Source: an uncultured Bacilli bacterium (GTDB lineage: Bacteria; Bacillota_I; Bacilli_A; RF39; UBA660). Taken from it: 32,324 nucleotides of DNA. Positions 201 to 12,833 of the stretch are shown here, piece by piece. The position numbers were made by a program, and so were the translations under genes. Within the stretch, counting starts at the first letter, position 1. Every line of letters starts with the position of its first letter. Under the pieces are notes generated by a model. That model was given only the letters and a program-made list of their open reading frames with translations, did no database searches and was not told where the DNA came from. The DNA lies in NCBI GenBank assembly GCA_944373135.1, contig CALWAM010000002.1:1-32324 (forward strand). Reading direction: 5' to 3'.

Positions 201-635
201 ATGTTATTTGATAATAACGATTTTGATATTAGCTTTTTAGTTGGAGGATATCCTAATATAGAAAATAAAAAATTAGTATATACCAAAGAAGAAGGCTTTT
301 TAAAAGGCAATATGTGGGTTGATGAATATAAACCTTATAAAAATTATAATGCTTATGTAATTAATCCTAGGAATGAGAAGGAGTTGTTAATTTTAAAGTT
401 ATATGAACTTGATTTTGCTATTAATGATCTTAATTTGTATTTGGATTTATATCCAAGTGATAAGGAAATCTATAATTTGTTTGTTAAATACAATAAAGAG
501 TATGAAGAGGTTAAAAATAGTTATGAAAAACTTTATGGACCACTATGTTTAACAGATACTGATTATAACAATTATAAATGGGATGATAATCCTTGGCCTT
601 GGGATAAAATGAGTGGAGGTAGTATGTATGTATAA
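201..635 (+). CDS. cotJB: spore coat protein CotJB, with an N-terminal CotJA-like segment
   Basis: AGGAGG lies 8 nt before the ATG. The C-terminal block YELDFAINDLNLYLDLYPSDKEIYNLFVKYNKEYEEVKNSYEKLYGPL matches the CotJB pattern (LYLDTHP...YE..YGPL). The N-terminal EEGFLKGNMWVDEYKPY resembles the CotJA C-terminal motif (aL.kGT.f.eL..PY). The gene overlaps cotJC by 8 nt. Confidence 0.7.
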   Translation: MLFDNNDFDISFLVGGYPNIENKKLVYTKEEGFLKGNMWVDEYKPYKNYNAYVINPRNEKELLILKLYELDFAINDLNLYLDLYPSDKEIYNLFVKYNKEYEEVKNSYEKLYGPLCLTDTDYNNYKWDDNPWPWDKMSGGSMYV

Positions 636-1185
636 ATATGTTAAAAAGTTAAATTACCCTATTAATTTGGATAAAAAAGATTTAAAGATGGCTAAATTGG
701 TTATAACGCAATTAGGTGGAGCTAATGGCGAATTAGGTGCGGCATTAAGATATTTTTCTCAAAAATTTACAATGCCTGATGAAAGAGGAAAGGCCTTATT
801 AAATGATATTGCATGTGAAGAATTAGGACACTGCGAAATGATTGCTACTATATTTAGACAATTAACCAAAGATGCAACATTAGAAGAATTAAAAAATGCT
901 GGATTAGATAGTTATTATACTGAACACAATAAAGGAATATATCCAATAAATGCGAGTGGTGTTGCTTTTACTGCCGATTATTTTGCCTCTGTTAATGATG
1001 TATTTGCTAATTTATCTGAAGATATGGCTGCAGAACAAAAAGCTCGGGTGACATATGAAAATTTAATTGATTTATGTACTGATGATAAATTAAGAGGAGT
1101 TTTATTATTCTTAAGACAAAGAGAAATTGTGCATTTTAATCGGTTTAAAGAATTATATGATTTTTATAAAAAGAAATATAATTAA
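628..1185 (+). CDS. cotJC: spore coat protein CotJC (manganese catalase / ferritin-like family)
   Basis: The translation has the CotJC/Mn-catalase hallmarks GGANGELGAALRYFSQ and EELGHCEMI, plus a C-terminal REIVHFNRF. I prefer the ATG at 628, with GGAGGT 7 nt upstream, over the GTG at 613 in the ORF track. Confidence 0.9.
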   Translation: MYKYVKKLNYPINLDKKDLKMAKLVITQLGGANGELGAALRYFSQKFTMPDERGKALLNDIACEELGHCEMIATIFRQLTKDATLEELKNAGLDSYYTEHNKGIYPINASGVAFTADYFASVNDVFANLSEDMAAEQKARVTYENLIDLCTDDKLRGVLLFLRQREIVHFNRFKELYDFYKKKYN

Positions 1186-6403: not shown

Positions 6404-7012
6404 TTAAACGTTATAGAATTTAGAATTTTTTCTAACTACCATTATTACAACTAATGCAACTAATGCGCCGCCACCTAATAAAGCATATGAAGCAAAGGCC
6501 CCAGTATTTGGATCACATTCTTCACCAACACATTCTTCTACGACAAAATCTGGTTCAATACAAATACCTTCACTTGATTCATTAGCATTATCAACAGGTG
6601 TATTATTTACTCTAACATTTTTTAAACAAAAACTACCGCAAGTACCATTTCCGATATCTTGAGCATTTTCACTTAAAGTCATTGTAAATGATCCAACAGA
6701 AACACTACCAGAAATTGCTTCACCAGTTCTTGTAAAATTAATTACAGTATTGGTACTACCATTATTAGCAAAACCAGCTGCTGTGTTAGCAATAGGATTG
6801 CTCATAGTTAAATAATTAGAACTAATTTCAGCAGTAAATGAAGTAATATTATCTGTAAATCCTTGTGCAGTTATAGTACATGTTGTTGATTCTCCTTTTT
6901 TTAATTCATCTTTTTCACATACTAAGCTGACACTTCCTGCATAAGCTTTAATACCAAATCCAAAGGTTGCAACAAATGTTAAAGCAATAAGTTTAGCCGT
7001 ATTTTTTTTCAT
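6404..7012 (-). CDS. secreted cell-wall-anchored surface protein with a cohesin-like beta domain and a DPNTG sorting signal
   Basis: The N-terminal signal peptide is MKKNTAKLIALTFVATFGFGIKAYA. The C-terminus has a tripartite sorting signal: DPNTG, the hydrophobic AFASYALLGGGALVALVVIMVV, and the basic tail RKNSK. The central domain pattern (GESTTCTITAQGF..ITSFTAEISSNYL..ISGSVSVGSFTMTL) looks cohesin-like, but that call is low confidence. Confidence 0.75.
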   Translation of the reverse strand: MKKNTAKLIALTFVATFGFGIKAYAGSVSLVCEKDELKKGESTTCTITAQGFTDNITSFTAEISSNYLTMSNPIANTAAGFANNGSTNTVINFTRTGEAISGSVSVGSFTMTLSENAQDIGNGTCGSFCLKNVRVNNTPVDNANESSEGICIEPDFVVEECVGEECDPNTGAFASYALLGGGALVALVVIMVVRKNSKFYNV

Positions 7013-7121: not shown

Positions 7122-7161
7122 GATTTTAGATAGGAATAATAAAAAGGGAGTAAGATAAATT

Positions 7162-8688
7162 ATGGCTAAAATAATGTTTGAAATAAATAGTAATACTTTA
7201 ATTTTAAATTATAAAAAAAGCATGGATTTTCCCGAAAATTTAACAGATACAAACATTATAAGTCATGATAAGCTGGTATTTTCTACAAAATATATAGATG
7301 TTAATCAAAAATTAGTAAAATTATTTATCAAAGATCTAATAATTGAGAAAAATATTAATTCTGTAATAATAGAAAATCTAGCTATATTAAAAATTTTTGC
7401 TTCCATATTAGATAAAACATTAATTATTGAACGTTTAACAATTCTAGATGATGTAAATTTTTCTTATGAAGCATGTGAAATTTTAATAAAAAGTGGAAAT
7501 ATTAAATTAGTAAACTGTTATGCTATTCCAACATTTATGATAGAGTTACTTGATAAAAATAATATTAAAGTCGAAGCGAGAAGTGAAATACTCTTTGCAA
7601 GTAATTTTATGTTAGAAAATAATCTAAGTAAATTTACTAATATATATTATAAAACATCAATTAGAGTTACGCCAAAATTAAATGAAGCTGATATAGATGA
7701 TTTTAAGTCTTTCTGTTATATCAATAAATATTTAAAAAATATTCATTTTAATAAATATGATAAAGATACTATTCAATTAATTGCTGATATCTTAAAAAAA
7801 TATAAAATTAAAAGAATTAAAATATATATACATGAAAACATTAATAATGCAAAAGATGCCTTAGAATTAAAACAACTAAAGAAAAAGTTATTAAAGGAAT
7901 ATAAATTGTATATAAAAGTTGTTTATTCTAATGAATATATAAAGGATAATTATGCCAAACAAATTATTTTAACTACTTTAAAATATTGTTCTTTGTTAGG
8001 GATTATTATTATATTCGTATCTATTTCTTATATTTTTTTAGATAATAAAATTAGTGAAAGTAATACTAATAAATTTATGGAAGAAATTCATACTATTATT
8101 GAAAATAATACAATCGATACTAATACTGGTGTTTACGTAAGTCCTTTAAATAGTTTATTAGAAATAAATGATGAAACGGTTGGATGGATAAAAGTTAATA
8201 ACACTAACATTGATTATCCAGTGGTTCAACATAGCGATAAAGATTATTATCTAAATCATAACTTCAAAAACGAAAAAGATAGTAATGGATGGGTTTTTAT
8301 GGATCCAAGAAATAACAAAAATAGTTTGGATCAGAATACGATAATTTATGGTCATAATAGATTTTATAGTGGAGTTATGTTTGGTACTTTAGGTAATGTC
8401 TTGAAAGAAGAATGGTATTCTAATCCAGAAAATTTAATTATTACCTTTAATACTTTATATGGAGAATATTCATGGAAAATTTTTTCTATTTATAGTAATC
8501 CTTCCAATGGTGATTATTTAATTACCAAGTTTGATAGTGATATAGAATATAGTAATTTTATTAATATGATTAAAGATAGAAGTATTTTTAATAATGATGT
8601 AGAAGTAAATGTTGATGATAAAATACTTACTTTGTCAACATGTTTAGAAAATGATAAAAGACTTGTAGTACATGCTGTATTGATATAA
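7162..8688 (+). CDS. srtB: class B sortase with a ~270-aa N-terminal cytoplasmic extension
   Basis: The C-terminal ~215 aa carry WIKVNNTNIDYPVVQ, the catalytic His in IIYGHN, the catalytic Cys in TLSTC, and Arg in RLVVHAVL. There is one TM anchor, LKYCSLLGIIIIFVSISYIFL, at about residues 273-293. Residues 1-270 have no TM helix or signal peptide and no motif I recognise. Confidence 0.85.
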   Translation: MAKIMFEINSNTLILNYKKSMDFPENLTDTNIISHDKLVFSTKYIDVNQKLVKLFIKDLIIEKNINSVIIENLAILKIFASILDKTLIIERLTILDDVNFSYEACEILIKSGNIKLVNCYAIPTFMIELLDKNNIKVEARSEILFASNFMLENNLSKFTNIYYKTSIRVTPKLNEADIDDFKSFCYINKYLKNIHFNKYDKDTIQLIADILKKYKIKRIKIYIHENINNAKDALELKQLKKKLLKEYKLYIKVVYSNEYIKDNYAKQIILTTLKYCSLLGIIIIFVSISYIFLDNKISESNTNKFMEEIHTIIENNTIDTNTGVYVSPLNSLLEINDETVGWIKVNNTNIDYPVVQHSDKDYYLNHNFKNEKDSNGWVFMDPRNNKNSLDQNTIIYGHNRFYSGVMFGTLGNVLKEEWYSNPENLIITFNTLYGEYSWKIFSIYSNPSNGDYLITKFDSDIEYSNFINMIKDRSIFNNDVEVNVDDKILTLSTCLENDKRLVVHAVLI

Positions 8689-8735: not shown

Positions 8736-11700
8736 ATGATAGAAGAGGAAAATGATAATATGAATATAAGTGAAATAATGAGTACTTTAAATAACATTTC
8801 TAATCATAAATTAAGAAGTAATGAAGATTTACCCCAAGAATTGGTAGACAAGCTAAATAAGGGAGCTTTATCATTACAAGATGAGAAAGAAAAATATTTG
8901 TTTTTAAAAAAAATATATGCCGGTAAAAATCGGGAGAATCTAGGAGCATATGATTACTACTATATTATATTATTAAAAAAACTTTTGTTAGATAAAGATA
9001 CTATTTTCTTATTTTTAGAAGATAGAAATATTTATAGCATTGATATTCTTAGATATTTATGGGATCTTTTATCAGTAGAAGAAAAAAAAGAATATTACAA
9101 TAAAATTACTAAATTTGATTATATTTTAACTGACTTGTTTAATGAAGATATAAAAGATAATTTTGAATTTGTTAATTTATTAAAGGATGATAATTTCGTT
9201 AATAAATTAAAAGATAATTGTATATTAATACCTAGTAAATTATATAATACTAAGTACTTAAATTTAAGTGAAGTAAAATCATCACTTTTAAAAAAGATAA
9301 ATAGTGATAGTCTAACTAGTCTAATTAATTTTAGATATAAATCACCTAAAAGATTAAGTAATTTACTAAATAAAAATATTAATCTAGTTAAATTTATTAA
9401 TAATCAAGGATTAGAATTTAGAATTGGAAAAGAAGATTTACTAAAACTGTTATTACAATTTCCCTATTTAATAACTAAATTAGATAGTATTCATATCATT
9501 CGAGATTTAAGTATGGAAGATATTCAAACTATTGAAAGCAAATTAAAAATATTAGAAAAAAGTAAATTAGTTGAAAATGCTTTATTGTATATTAAACAAT
9601 TATATATAATATTAAAAAATGAAAATAATAGGGATTTAAATTATTATATTACAAAAAGTGCTGATTATAGCATTATCTTCTACCCTTTTAAAAAAATAGA
9701 TTTTGAAGACTATCGTAATTTATTGGTTAAATATGTTAATTTAAAAAAATTCGCACCAAGTGTCATGGAACAAATAGTAGTTGAATATTTTAATGAAGAT
9801 GAAAAATTATCATTATTTAGAGATAGTCAATTCATTGCCGATATGAGTGGCGAAGTATTAACGTCTATACTAGACACAATGAATTTTAGAACAGTTTTTA
9901 ATTTATTACAAAATAAAGAATTATTTTTAAAGATTAAAAATTTAAATTGTAATATTGAGGAATTTGAGTTCTCATTAATGACTGGATATTTAGATGATCC
10001 ATTATTCGTTGAAGTATCAAGTAGTGATTTGGTTTTTAATGCTATTAATTCTTTAAAGACTAATAGTATTCGAAAATATTTAAGATATCCATATATTAAA
10101 AACAAACTAACTTTTAACCAATTTTTAACTCTTGCTAGTAAAGCAAATGTTAAAATACTTGATTTATTTAATGTCTTTAACATAAATGATTTTAATTGGA
10201 GCAGCGAATATAAAACAGTTAATGAATGGTTAAAAATCTATGTCGATAAATGTTTACAAAAAGAAGCATCTTTTAAAATTTTTGGTGATAAAGAAACTTT
10301 GATGCTTTTATACGATTTACCATCTAATGTTATATCGCAAATCAACATGAGTGAAATCGAATATTTACTTGAAACAATTTTAATGAAAAACAAATTAAAA
10401 AATACTCATGATAATATTACTTATGAAGGTGTAAGATCATTGCTAGCCAGCTATATTGCCTTAGGTTTTGATAAAACAGTAAAGTTGATTAACGACGGAA
10501 CTAATAATTTAGAATTAGAAGATATAATTGATTTTAAAACCAAGTTAAAGAAAAGTAAGTTAACTATATTTAAAGTCAATAATCAAAATATCTTTGAACA
10601 ATTGAATGTAAAATTAAAGAACAATTTACTACCTATTGCTTTAATGTATAAAAATGGAATTAGTAATTTTTCTTTAAGCGAATTAATATATGACTTCCCA
10701 TTTTTAAAGAATATAATAAGAATGATGAATGAATCTGGCTATTCTAATTATCAAGAATCTCTTGAGACTATTGAAAGATATATTAATTATTATTTTAATA
10801 ATAGTAAACAAGCCGATATTATTCTTTATAATTTTACGAATGGATTTATCGAATATTTGTTAACAAAAAAAAGTGAAGAACTTGATCAAGGATTGCAAAA
10901 AAATATTATAAATATTCTGTCATTAACAAGCGAAGCACTACATAGACAATTGCAGGGAACAAAAGATAAATTTTTACAAAGAAAGCATTTTATGATTCTT
11001 ACTAATATACTAGACGGAATTGACGATAAAAAAATATCTAGTTTAATAAAAAATAATAATGATTTTATTACAAAGCTTAATAAGGAATTAGCAGAAGAAT
11101 TGACCTCCTTAGGTGTCATTGATAATAGCATTATAAATGGATTAGAAAAAAATTTATTCTATAAGTTTTATAAAAATAAACTAAATATTTTTGATTTTTT
11201 ACTTAATTATTTTAATATTGCTAAACCGATTGGTTATGATGAATACCAAAAGTCCAATAATGAAGAATTGGTTATAAAAAAATTAAATCATTATATTATA
11301 CAAAATACTGATAATATCGAAGACAGAATTAATTGTTTTCAATATGTATTGTATGATATTCCTTTAAATAAGAAATATAAATCTTCAATTATAAATAAAT
11401 TAAATGATTATCGGAGAATTGTCAAAAAATTCATGGGAGAAATATTTATTAACAAAGTTGATATGTTACTTGAATATAAGCGTAAAGATATTTTAGGTGA
11501 TAAAGAAGAAATAACTTCATATGATGAAAAAATAAATGTTATTAAAAAGATTATCAAAAAAACAATTATCTTCTTAAATGAGAATATTAATGATAATAAG
11601 TTGTTAAAAGCTTATCGCAAAGAATATGAATCACAAAAAAAAGAAGATAAATTAGGAATCGCATTAAATAAGAAAAACTTTATAGTAAATCGGATGAGCT

Positions 11701-12833
11701 TTGGTATTCAAAATTTAATTAATATATTTAAAGGATACGATTTTAGAAATGAACAAAAGTTAACTGATGACGATTTTCAATTTCTTTTTGAAAGAAAAAA
11801 TATTTACTTTGCTGGAGTTGGTCTATGCGATTTTTATAATATTCCTTTCGGTCAAATATTAAACAATTTAAATAGTATTAAAAGTATGTACATGGAAGCG
11901 GGAATAAATATACAATCTCTAGATTTAGATAACGCAGCAAAATTAGCTCGATATTTGTTAATAGATGAGAATATTAATCGAAATATACTTATAAACAACG
12001 AAGAAGCTTATGCATACCAAAGAAGTAATATTTACACTAATATTCCTCCGGTGGCTGGTTTTTACAATTCAATATACTACGAAATAACTGATAAAATGAC
12101 GGCTAATATCGATGAGGATAATGTTAGTTGGATTATGGATGATAATAAATGTTTAGTAAAATTAATAGATCCCGTTACCAATGAGGTCTTAGCTCAAGTT
12201 TATGGAGAAAGAATTGGTAACTCACTAGTATTTAATGCTATAGGAATCGATGAAGATTTACTTGAATGTTTGGATAAAGTTGGTGAAAAAATTATTAAAA
12301 AAACACAGCTAGAAAACGAATCAATAGATTTTGTCATTATTCGAACCGATGGCAAAATAAACGGTGTTAGTCTAGATAGTAAAAACTGCAGTTGCTATCA
12401 AGAAATAATCAGTTTATTTAATAAAAACGATTTAGATAATTATAATTATTATATAACCGCCGCAGTTAAAGAAGTAAAAGCTGAAAACTTTATTAATTAC
12501 GAAGTTACTAATAAGTATTTAAGAAAGCGAAATAAAAATGTTTATGTTAGCAATATTGCTGAAATGAAATTAGTTGATAAAGCTAGAAGTATTTTATATA
12601 AATATGCCGAAGAAAATGATAAAAATGTAAGCAGTATAGATGATCTTTTAGCGAATTATAAAGAAATGTATTTAGGCGATGATTGGGTATTAATTATTGA
12701 TAAAAACAACGTGGTTAATTATTACATTACTGGTATTGATGATAGAGCACAAGAAGAAGTTAATGACTTATTAAAAAAAATTGAAAAGGAAATGGTTATA
12801 GATGCTAGGAGTAATTATAGATTACATATCTGA
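8736..12833 (+). CDS. giant hypothetical protein (1365 aa), predicted cytoplasmic, no recognisable catalytic motif
   Basis: This uninterrupted 4.1-kb ORF is in a ~25% GC background where random ORFs are short. It has no TM segment, signal peptide, Walker A, HExxH or DEAD motif. An alternative start is the ATG at 8760 (MNISEIM...), with GAGGA 10 nt upstream. It ends in TGA. Confidence 0.8.
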   Translation: MIEEENDNMNISEIMSTLNNISNHKLRSNEDLPQELVDKLNKGALSLQDEKEKYLFLKKIYAGKNRENLGAYDYYYIILLKKLLLDKDTIFLFLEDRNIYSIDILRYLWDLLSVEEKKEYYNKITKFDYILTDLFNEDIKDNFEFVNLLKDDNFVNKLKDNCILIPSKLYNTKYLNLSEVKSSLLKKINSDSLTSLINFRYKSPKRLSNLLNKNINLVKFINNQGLEFRIGKEDLLKLLLQFPYLITKLDSIHIIRDLSMEDIQTIESKLKILEKSKLVENALLYIKQLYIILKNENNRDLNYYITKSADYSIIFYPFKKIDFEDYRNLLVKYVNLKKFAPSVMEQIVVEYFNEDEKLSLFRDSQFIADMSGEVLTSILDTMNFRTVFNLLQNKELFLKIKNLNCNIEEFEFSLMTGYLDDPLFVEVSSSDLVFNAINSLKTNSIRKYLRYPYIKNKLTFNQFLTLASKANVKILDLFNVFNINDFNWSSEYKTVNEWLKIYVDKCLQKEASFKIFGDKETLMLLYDLPSNVISQINMSEIEYLLETILMKNKLKNTHDNITYEGVRSLLASYIALGFDKTVKLINDGTNNLELEDIIDFKTKLKKSKLTIFKVNNQNIFEQLNVKLKNNLLPIALMYKNGISNFSLSELIYDFPFLKNIIRMMNESGYSNYQESLETIERYINYYFNNSKQADIILYNFTNGFIEYLLTKKSEELDQGLQKNIINILSLTSEALHRQLQGTKDKFLQRKHFMILTNILDGIDDKKISSLIKNNNDFITKLNKELAEELTSLGVIDNSIINGLEKNLFYKFYKNKLNIFDFLLNYFNIAKPIGYDEYQKSNNEELVIKKLNHYIIQNTDNIEDRINCFQYVLYDIPLNKKYKSSIINKLNDYRRIVKKFMGEIFINKVDMLLEYKRKDILGDKEEITSYDEKINVIKKIIKKTIIFLNENINDNKLLKAYRKEYESQKKEDKLGIALNKKNFIVNRMSFGIQNLINIFKGYDFRNEQKLTDDDFQFLFERKNIYFAGVGLCDFYNIPFGQILNNLNSIKSMYMEAGINIQSLDLDNAAKLARYLLIDENINRNILINNEEAYAYQRSNIYTNIPPVAGFYNSIYYEITDKMTANIDEDNVSWIMDDNKCLVKLIDPVTNEVLAQVYGERIGNSLVFNAIGIDEDLLECLDKVGEKIIKKTQLENESIDFVIIRTDGKINGVSLDSKNCSCYQEIISLFNKNDLDNYNYYITAAVKEVKAENFINYEVTNKYLRKRNKNVYVSNIAEMKLVDKARSILYKYAEENDKNVSSIDDLLANYKEMYLGDDWVLIIDKNNVVNYYITGIDDRAQEEVNDLLKKIEKEMVIDARSNYRLHI

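Follow-up and report, generated by a model that had tools for sequence, protein, structure and literature searches.

Sortases are textbook simple enzymes, built of a membrane anchor and an extracellular transpeptidase, and their substrates are taken to end in a cytoplasmic tail that serves as a non-specific, positively charged "stop-transfer" signal. The class B sortases (SrtB) known from Staphylococcus aureus (1ng5), Bacillus anthracis (2oqz), Clostridioides difficile (4ux7) and Clostridium perfringens (5b23) have a short N-terminal stretch, then a signal-anchor, and an extracellular catalytic domain. We analysed a 32,324 nt stretch of DNA (the window: contig CALWAM010000002.1 of assembly GCA_944373135.1, positions 1 to 32,324) from an uncultured Bacilli bacterium, in which the gene at 7162-8688 (+ strand; 508 amino acids and a stop codon) encodes a SrtB with about 267 predicted folded residues in place of that short stretch. 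The protein shares with the four known enzymes the TLSTC cysteine, the histidine and arginine, and the N-terminal signal-anchor with the catalytic domain outside, and its catalytic domain is 34-39% identical to theirs (target template-modelling score, TM, 0.76-0.90); it departs from the type-II plan with a short cytoplasmic tail in architecture, not in catalytic family. The literature that was searched, including a 2021 sortase review, described no sortase with a large cytoplasmic domain, which is not proof of absence. What is new here is a clade of SrtBs predicted to carry, on the cytoplasmic side, a large, conserved and folded domain whose family Pfam and NCBIfam do not yet contain.

The initial annotation, made from the letters of the DNA, had taken the C-terminal part for a genuine sortase B, and this was borne out. 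The catalytic domain (residues 336-508; 8167-8685, + strand) was delimited from TIGR03064, phmmer and Foldseek matches and from invariant alignment columns. The NCBIfam model TIGR03064 (class B sortase, equivalog) scored 184.4 bits against a cut-off of 153.75, its positions 6-234 of 235 aligning to residues 274-502, and the Pfam model Sortase (PF04203) scored 46.5 bits against a cut-off of 26.6 over residues 343-507. Searches with phmmer against SrtBs in the PDB gave E values of 1e-41 to 1e-19, and Foldseek of the AlphaFold model against 2oqz, 1rz2, 1ng5, 4lfd, 5b23 and 5jcv gave E values of 1e-17 to 4e-21 with target TM of 0.85-0.90. Residues H398, C494 (within LTLSTC) and R500 were invariant in 29 homologues and are the likely catalytic triad, R500 being assigned as the catalytic arginine from its position in the conserved RLVVHA strand; the enzyme is predicted on these grounds to be a catalytically complete SrtB. 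As indirect context for wall attachment, the window's genome encodes four penicillin-binding protein (PBP) transpeptidase domains and three Mur ligases, from which it appears that a wall is made.

The long reading frame, identified from the list of open reading frames and from full-length homologues at 100% coverage, is preceded by a ribosome-binding site read from the sequence (GGGAG, 7146-7150, + strand, 11 nt before the ATG). Among the more than 2,500 matches in a set of 5.8 billion proteins was a near-identical one of 508 amino acids (P0001, 99% identity); the best 120 had 98-100% query coverage, 46-62% identity and lengths of 508-565 amino acids; one full-length match carries the name "class B sortase [Candidatus Coprovivens sp.]". 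Translation had been proposed to begin at 7162 rather than near the membrane segment, and the alignment of 29 homologues agrees with this, the homologue start M-K-K-I matching M1-A2-K3-I4 with K3 invariant. There were no ATG codons between M150 and the membrane helix, and the DNA from about residue 255 on, read by eye for GTG and TTG, held a single TTG, within the membrane helix; a short isoform with a start near the anchor is therefore unlikely. The spread of the extension among other SrtBs was followed by a scan of one genome per species, which found an N-domain relative in 111 species. The 80 loci that were fetched all come from metagenome-assembled genomes (MAGs) of uncultured gut Bacilli (labels include Coprobacillus sp. 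CAG:605, Mycoplasma sp. CAG:776 and "Tenericutes"), and the N-terminal and SrtB domains were in the same frame in 80/80, the gene being complete in 74 and cut by a contig end in 6. In the order sample, with the window's genome counted, the frame was single in 107/108 genome matches. The fusion is thus one frame in more than 100 species, and no orthologue had the N-terminal region as a separate gene upstream of the sortase, which had been the worry attached to the initial annotation. To the extent that sequence can show, the shared frame across loci and the lack of an internal start codon near the helix exclude both an assembly artefact and a downstream start.

The N-terminal region as far as the start of the anchor occupies codons 1-273 (7162-7980). 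An anchor beginning at about residue 273, with no other membrane helix or signal peptide before it, had been claimed for this protein; a Kyte-Doolittle scan found residues 267-297 as the sole membrane-grade segment, and the anchor as first read (LKYCSLLGIIIIFVSISYIFL, residues 273-293) lies within this helix. We place the signal-anchor helix at about residues 268-296 (7963-8049, + strand) from hydropathy, the AlphaFold model and the alignment, with the TIGR03064 match starting at residue 274; T272 and C276 within it were invariant in the alignment of 29 homologues. Residues 1-40 (hydropathy 0.05) are not hydrophobic, so there is no signal peptide, and a borderline hydropathy window at 65-83 (1.74) holds charged residues and was modelled as a strand and a helix. 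The full-length AlphaFold model (mean predicted local distance difference test, pLDDT, of 85) consists of the N-domain, a long helix (264-315) and the SrtB fold; the anchor is continuous with this one helix, which runs from the N-domain straight into the membrane. It is followed by an extracellular stalk and variable linker (residues 297-335; 8050-8166, + strand), recognised by length-variable, gap-rich alignment columns and by a pLDDT of 66-68 around 310-330. Since there is a single anchor and no signal peptide, and the catalytic domain needs to be outside the cell, the N-domain must by this topology be cytoplasmic, and the sortase must have type-II topology, its catalytic part facing outwards. 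The cytoplasmic placement had originally been drawn from the positive-inside rule; the placement holds, but the bias in charge is small (mean net charge over 29 homologues +1.4 on the N-side vs -0.2 on the C-side) and the location follows mainly from the catalytic domain being outside.

Because Foldseek of the full-length model gave sortases only, the N-domain (residues 1-262; 7162-7947, + strand; bounded from AlphaFold models and a 44-sequence alignment) was re-predicted alone with 44 homologues (pLDDT 85.6, predicted TM 0.70). The model shows two beta-hairpins (3-41), a helix (49-62) and then eight beta-alpha units of 20-30 residues, with strands at about 67, 91, 116, 136, 166, 193, 220 and 250 that are just 4 residues long; the middle unit (136-164) is irregular and highly conserved. 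The regularly spaced Leu/Ile stretches noticed in the first reading correspond to these eight modelled units, and the suggestion of a repeat/LRR-like (leucine-rich repeat) or alpha/beta scaffold agrees with a confidently modelled beta-alpha repeat fold, for which matches to known folds were weak and had an LRR theme of the ribonuclease inhibitor (RNI)/F-box type. Across the 44 sequences (39-56% identity) 26 N-domain columns were invariant, and conserved polar residues were T30, N31, S34, N48, D131, R140, E142, S147, N153, K164, D177 and D180; the invariant residues in the 29 homologues include T30, F40, S41, Y44, N48, C119, Y120, P123, D131, R140, E142, S147 and F149. The invariant polar residues were concentrated in the N-cap hairpin, the irregular middle unit and the start of unit 5, and in the model they may form a candidate binding site.

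No described family accounted for the N-domain. It had no credible Pfam or NCBIfam match in the window protein and no credible Pfam family in the 44 homologues at E up to 1, LRR families were absent from the listed Pfam matches of the window protein and the 44 homologues at the same limit, and a hidden Markov model of the N-domain searched against PDB sequences gave nothing relevant. A match to DUF5616 (E 1.4e-3 for the full protein, 3.6e-3 for the N-domain, in 2/44 members only) and one to YehR (E 0.26) were rejected as noise. Foldseek of the N-domain against PDB and BFVD gave no match at E <= 1e-3, and the weaker matches all had TM <0.35; the commonest theme of the weak matches in both was LRRs of the RNI/NLR/F-box type, namely NLRP3 (3e-3, the best E), SKP2, tropomodulin, ribonuclease inhibitor, NLRC4, MAX2 and giant-virus F-box/LRR proteins, at TM 0.2-0.3. 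A TIM (beta/alpha)8 barrel was rejected despite the eight beta-alpha units, the best such matches having TM <= 0.34, a root-mean-square deviation (rmsd) of 17-21 A and E >= 9e-3. Comparison of the modelled units with hhalign revealed no significant similarity; only units 5-7 matched one another weakly and in register (best P 1e-3). The RNI-like, or cysteine-containing, LRRs (ribonuclease inhibitor, the LRRs of NLRs, SKP2/MAX2) likewise have short alternating strand-helix units of 20-30 residues with Leu/Ile-rich strands; the N-domain differs from them in being without an LRR Pfam match or a significant internal repeat, in matching their fold at TM <0.3 and rmsd >13 A, and in having a beta-hairpin N-cap and the irregular conserved middle unit 136-164. 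From the model we describe the N-domain as LRR-like: a beta-alpha repeat domain that forms a new sequence family and that we do not count among the LRR superfamily.

We examined how widely this domain occurs. The isolated N-domain searched against 1.84 billion cluster representatives gave 159 matches, of which those of at least 480 amino acids nearly all had the TLSTC sortase end and the short ones were mostly fragments; against the set of 5.8 billion proteins it gave fragments only, owing to the length window of the search. It was present in 107/299 sampled genomes of the window's own family (about a third) and in 46/127 genera of the family, consistently within genera (e.g., 8/8 and 14/15), and was not found in about 350 sampled genomes from 29 other families of the class. 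These sampled genomes are 0.7-1.6 Mb in size; the window's genome is 0.89 Mb, 91% complete, and has one copy. Same-family genomes without the N-domain carry ordinary short SrtBs (open frames of 245-324 amino acids with a short basic N-tail), and in a tree of catalytic domains 82 long forms and 9 of these short forms were split on one branch (Shimodaira-Hasegawa-like support 0.90). The long forms are thereby distinguished from ordinary SrtBs by a catalytic-domain clade of their own as well as by the fixed-length substrate signal with a conserved tail described below. This single-branch split fits one fusion event, probably followed by vertical inheritance and loss.

The long sortase is paired with a cognate substrate. 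Divergent from it lies a gene (6404-7012, - strand) for a protein of 202 amino acids with a signal peptide, and with DPNTG, 22 hydrophobic residues and RKNSKFYNV-COOH at its end; no other protein of the genome, which is 91% complete, had a sorting signal of this kind. The adjacent substrate gene with an [NSD]PxTG-type motif resembles the known SrtB systems with (S/N)PxTG signals of C. difficile and Ruminococcus. At 46 other loci (in L006-L084) the long sortase likewise had an equivalent gene (173-350 amino acids) divergently upstream. The PxTG motif was followed by exactly 31 residues in 48/48 substrates, with P, T and G invariant, and the residue before P was N in 24/48 and S in 11/48; counted from the C-terminus, Y stood at -27 in 46/48 and G at -21 in 40/48. 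The last nine residues had the consensus [RK]K-x-x-K-hydrophobic-Y-[KRH]-[IVL], with K at -5 in 46/48, Y or F at -3 in 44/48, and positions -4 and -1 hydrophobic in 48/48; position -3 varied to N in 4 cases and F in 4, and tail variants followed phylogeny. Substrates compared in pairs had a mean identity of 21% in the mature part, rising to 34% in the membrane segment and 50% in the tail. As a control, four credible substrates near same-family short SrtBs had tails of 4-11 residues (KKKR, RKNKDKENMQF, KNRKFN and RKRLSKVNK) and 28-36 residues after the motif, and 0/4 fitted the tail pattern of the long sortases. The aligned substrates show constraint on the membrane segment and the cytoplasmic tail that goes far beyond a need for hydrophobic and basic residues, and the conserved gene order likewise shows what appears to be a dedicated one-enzyme/one-substrate cassette with a divergent small secreted protein. 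We regard both the architecture and the substrate pairing as real with near certainty.

A second sortase is present in the same genome (contig C88, L001, 721-1849, - strand): it has 211 amino acids, an N-terminal anchor and the active-site motif LILYTCYP, and its gene overlaps the end of one for a secreted protein of 167 amino acids, whose C-terminus is a hydrophobic segment and RKLRYEK and which has no recognisable LPXTG-type motif. A pattern search of the 91%-complete genome found no LPXTG substrates.

The explanation that best covers these data as a whole, and which we judge plausible if somewhat short of probable, is a functional SrtB with a folded cytoplasmic repeat domain, working in a dedicated cassette by capture of the substrate's tail. 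In place of the usual cytoplasmic N-tail of a few residues, the enzyme would have a folded beta-alpha repeat domain of about 262 residues that is specific to the lineage and is held on the inner face of the membrane by the continuous anchor helix. The domain would be a protein- or peptide-binding module that captures the nine-residue C-terminal tail of the substrate as this emerges beside the sortase's own membrane helix, such that the substrate would be recognised on both sides of the membrane, by PxTG outside and by its membrane segment and tail inside. Alternatively, the cleaved membrane remnant could be held or handed on after transpeptidation; and in about 45% of the loci the same platform may additionally dock a giant cytoplasmic protein encoded downstream. 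From its predicted position the N-domain can reach the substrate's cytoplasmic tail, though not its extracellular part, as had already been recognised. Docking of the tail or of the post-cleavage remnant by the cytoplasmic domain is a possibility that we favour with some hesitation, on account of the conserved fixed-length tail, its occurrence in 0/4 controls, the geometry of the helix and the weak theme of LRRs, which are protein-binding scaffolds. That this would be the first sortase to read its substrate from both sides of the membrane, with PxTG bound outside and an LRR-like domain on the tail or remnant inside, is a more doubtful proposition. Were it so, substrate choice, timing or remnant clearance would be controlled from the cytoplasm, and the domain with its anchor would be a portable "tail reader".

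Several observations weigh against tail capture. The LRR likeness is non-significant (best E 3e-3, TM <0.3), and TIM barrels and Rossmann-like folds score alike. The tail may be conserved because some other factor in the cytoplasm or membrane recognises it, or simply through shared ancestry of a single cassette, and the control set for short SrtBs is small (n=4). The conserved polar cluster after strands 4 and 5 also fits a small-ligand or catalytic site. Finally, stand-alone proteins made of the N-domain and a membrane helix occur without a sortase domain or an adjacent substrate, which suggests that the N-domain has, or can acquire, a role apart from the fused sortase.

Dedicated enzyme/signal pairs are known for the LPKTxAVK-specific SrtB (NF040525), the Ruminococcus NPXTG signal (NF033846) and exosortase/PEP-CTERM, and likewise consist of a specialised enzyme co-inherited with a conserved C-terminal signal module; the window sortase scored 84 bits against a cut-off of 200 for NF040525 and its substrate 16.6 bits against a cut-off of 23.5 for NF033846. 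None of these systems is known to have a large cytoplasmic domain on the enzyme. In Streptococcus gordonii, cleaved sorting-signal remnants are reportedly sensed inside the membrane. That system would be a precedent for specific recognition of a substrate's membrane or cytoplasmic part; its reader is said to be a separate sensor kinase, whereas here the candidate reader is fused to the sortase itself.

About ten database proteins of 278-301 amino acids stop directly after the membrane helix, and three of these N-domain-plus-anchor forms (P0202, P0173 and P0208) were inspected at the DNA level. The gene for P0202 ends at TAA and adjoins a ribulose-phosphate epimerase gene and a TPR gene; the next gene is convergent, and the same MAG also holds a fused copy. 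P0173 (286 amino acids), on a JGI metagenome contig (cluster at L085 491-5861), is the last gene of a tightly packed apparent operon, LtaS - 203 amino acids - LCP (LytR_cpsA_psr, 622 amino acids), and ends at TAA; since an insertion-sequence transposase (DDE_Tnp_1_6) follows immediately, P0173 may be a sortase gene cut short by insertion. P0208 (284 amino acids; L108, G049:C6, 7309-8892, genome G049) has a stop right after the membrane helix, lacks the otherwise invariant NTN motif and is divergent to an mraZ-rsmH-ftsL-PBP-like cluster, as read from gene order and N-terminal sequences; genome G049 has a short SrtB on another contig, which grouped with the short forms in the tree, and its congener G254 has the fused gene. 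We considered if these forms could be table-11 truncations at TGA codons read under code 4, and rejected this: two of the checked stops were TAA, and no sortase-like sequence followed any of the three. The three genes show that a unit of domain and anchor can exist on its own. They leave the fusion intact as a finding, since none is the upstream neighbour of a sortase.

A role for the N-domain as a localisation or coupling module is the alternative that survives best, and we consider it unlikely. It would tie the sortase to some cytoplasmic landmark, for instance the divisome, the machinery for wall synthesis or teichoic acids, the Sec translocon or a sporulation septum, so that anchoring took place at a set position and the domain made no contact with the substrate. 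Two of the stand-alone genes do stand in envelope-biogenesis contexts (the LtaS-LCP operon and the apparent mraZ-rsmH-ftsL-PBP cluster), LRR-like scaffolds bind proteins, and cotJB/cotJC lie near the locus in the window and in a Coprovivens genome. The contexts of the stand-alone genes differ, however, the third being beside the ribulose-phosphate epimerase and TPR genes; no partner gene co-occurs consistently, and localisation would leave the conserved fixed-length tail of the substrate unexplained.

The cotJB gene and one for a CotJC-type Mn-catalase lie a few kb from the sortase cassette both in the window (201-1185, + strand) and in a Candidatus Coprovivens genome (L003, 3324-4251). That both genomes have them near the cassette points to conserved synteny, and to possible sporulation in these bacteria with small genomes.

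Immediately downstream of the sortase is a gene for a cytoplasmic protein of 1365 amino acids (8736-12833, + strand), which appears to be an accessory partner in part of the family: homologues of 1000-1392 amino acids directly follow the long sortase in about 35/80 loci, and in the remaining loci a convergent unrelated gene stands there. That the N-domain mainly docks this giant protein, forming a sortase-associated cytoplasmic complex, seems to us less likely again than a localisation role. Every detected homologue of the giant gene comes next after a long sortase gene and in the same orientation, separated from it by 2-80 nt in most loci, and neither protein has other annotated partners; against this, the giant gene is confined to those 35 or so loci and the N-domain is equally conserved in the rest, for which reason the giant protein cannot be the general reason for the N-domain. 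As judged from this distribution, the giant gene depends on the long sortase and the converse is untrue.

A role as an enzyme or small-ligand sensor with a Rossmann- or TIM-like fold, gating the sortase or modifying something in the cytoplasm, is improbable for the N-domain. The eight beta-alpha units would fit such a role, as would R140, E142, S147, N153, K164, D177 and D180, which come directly after strands 4 and 5, where parallel beta-alpha folds usually have their active site; TIM barrels and CoA- or nucleotide-binding domains are also among the weak Foldseek matches. Yet no enzyme family was matched significantly in sequence or fold, strands of 4 residues are as in solenoids, and no nucleotide-binding motif was visible. 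Scarcely conceivable is an artefactual long frame, whether from fusion of an upstream gene to a normal SrtB by misassembly or frameshift or from a true start near the helix: nothing favours it beyond the ten or so short database proteins, which might at first look like a split gene, and it is contradicted by the single frame shared by independent assemblies of more than 100 species, by the conserved N-terminal Met and K3 with no start-type codon near the anchor except the TTG in the helix, and by the three short forms checked, which end at TAA (two) or form a closed frame of 284 amino acids, without a sortase gene downstream.

For annotation, the finding adds a new domain family; it also describes a surface-protein cassette of abundant, uncultured, small-genome gut Bacilli, in which the single cognate substrate has a cytoplasmic tail better conserved than the rest of the protein. 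It offers the testable hypothesis that a sorting signal may be recognised from the cytoplasmic side. If the domain and the tail do interact, surface display in these bacteria could be controlled or proof-read from inside the cell, which would be a new principle of sortase specificity and might be used for the design of orthogonal sortase/tag pairs.

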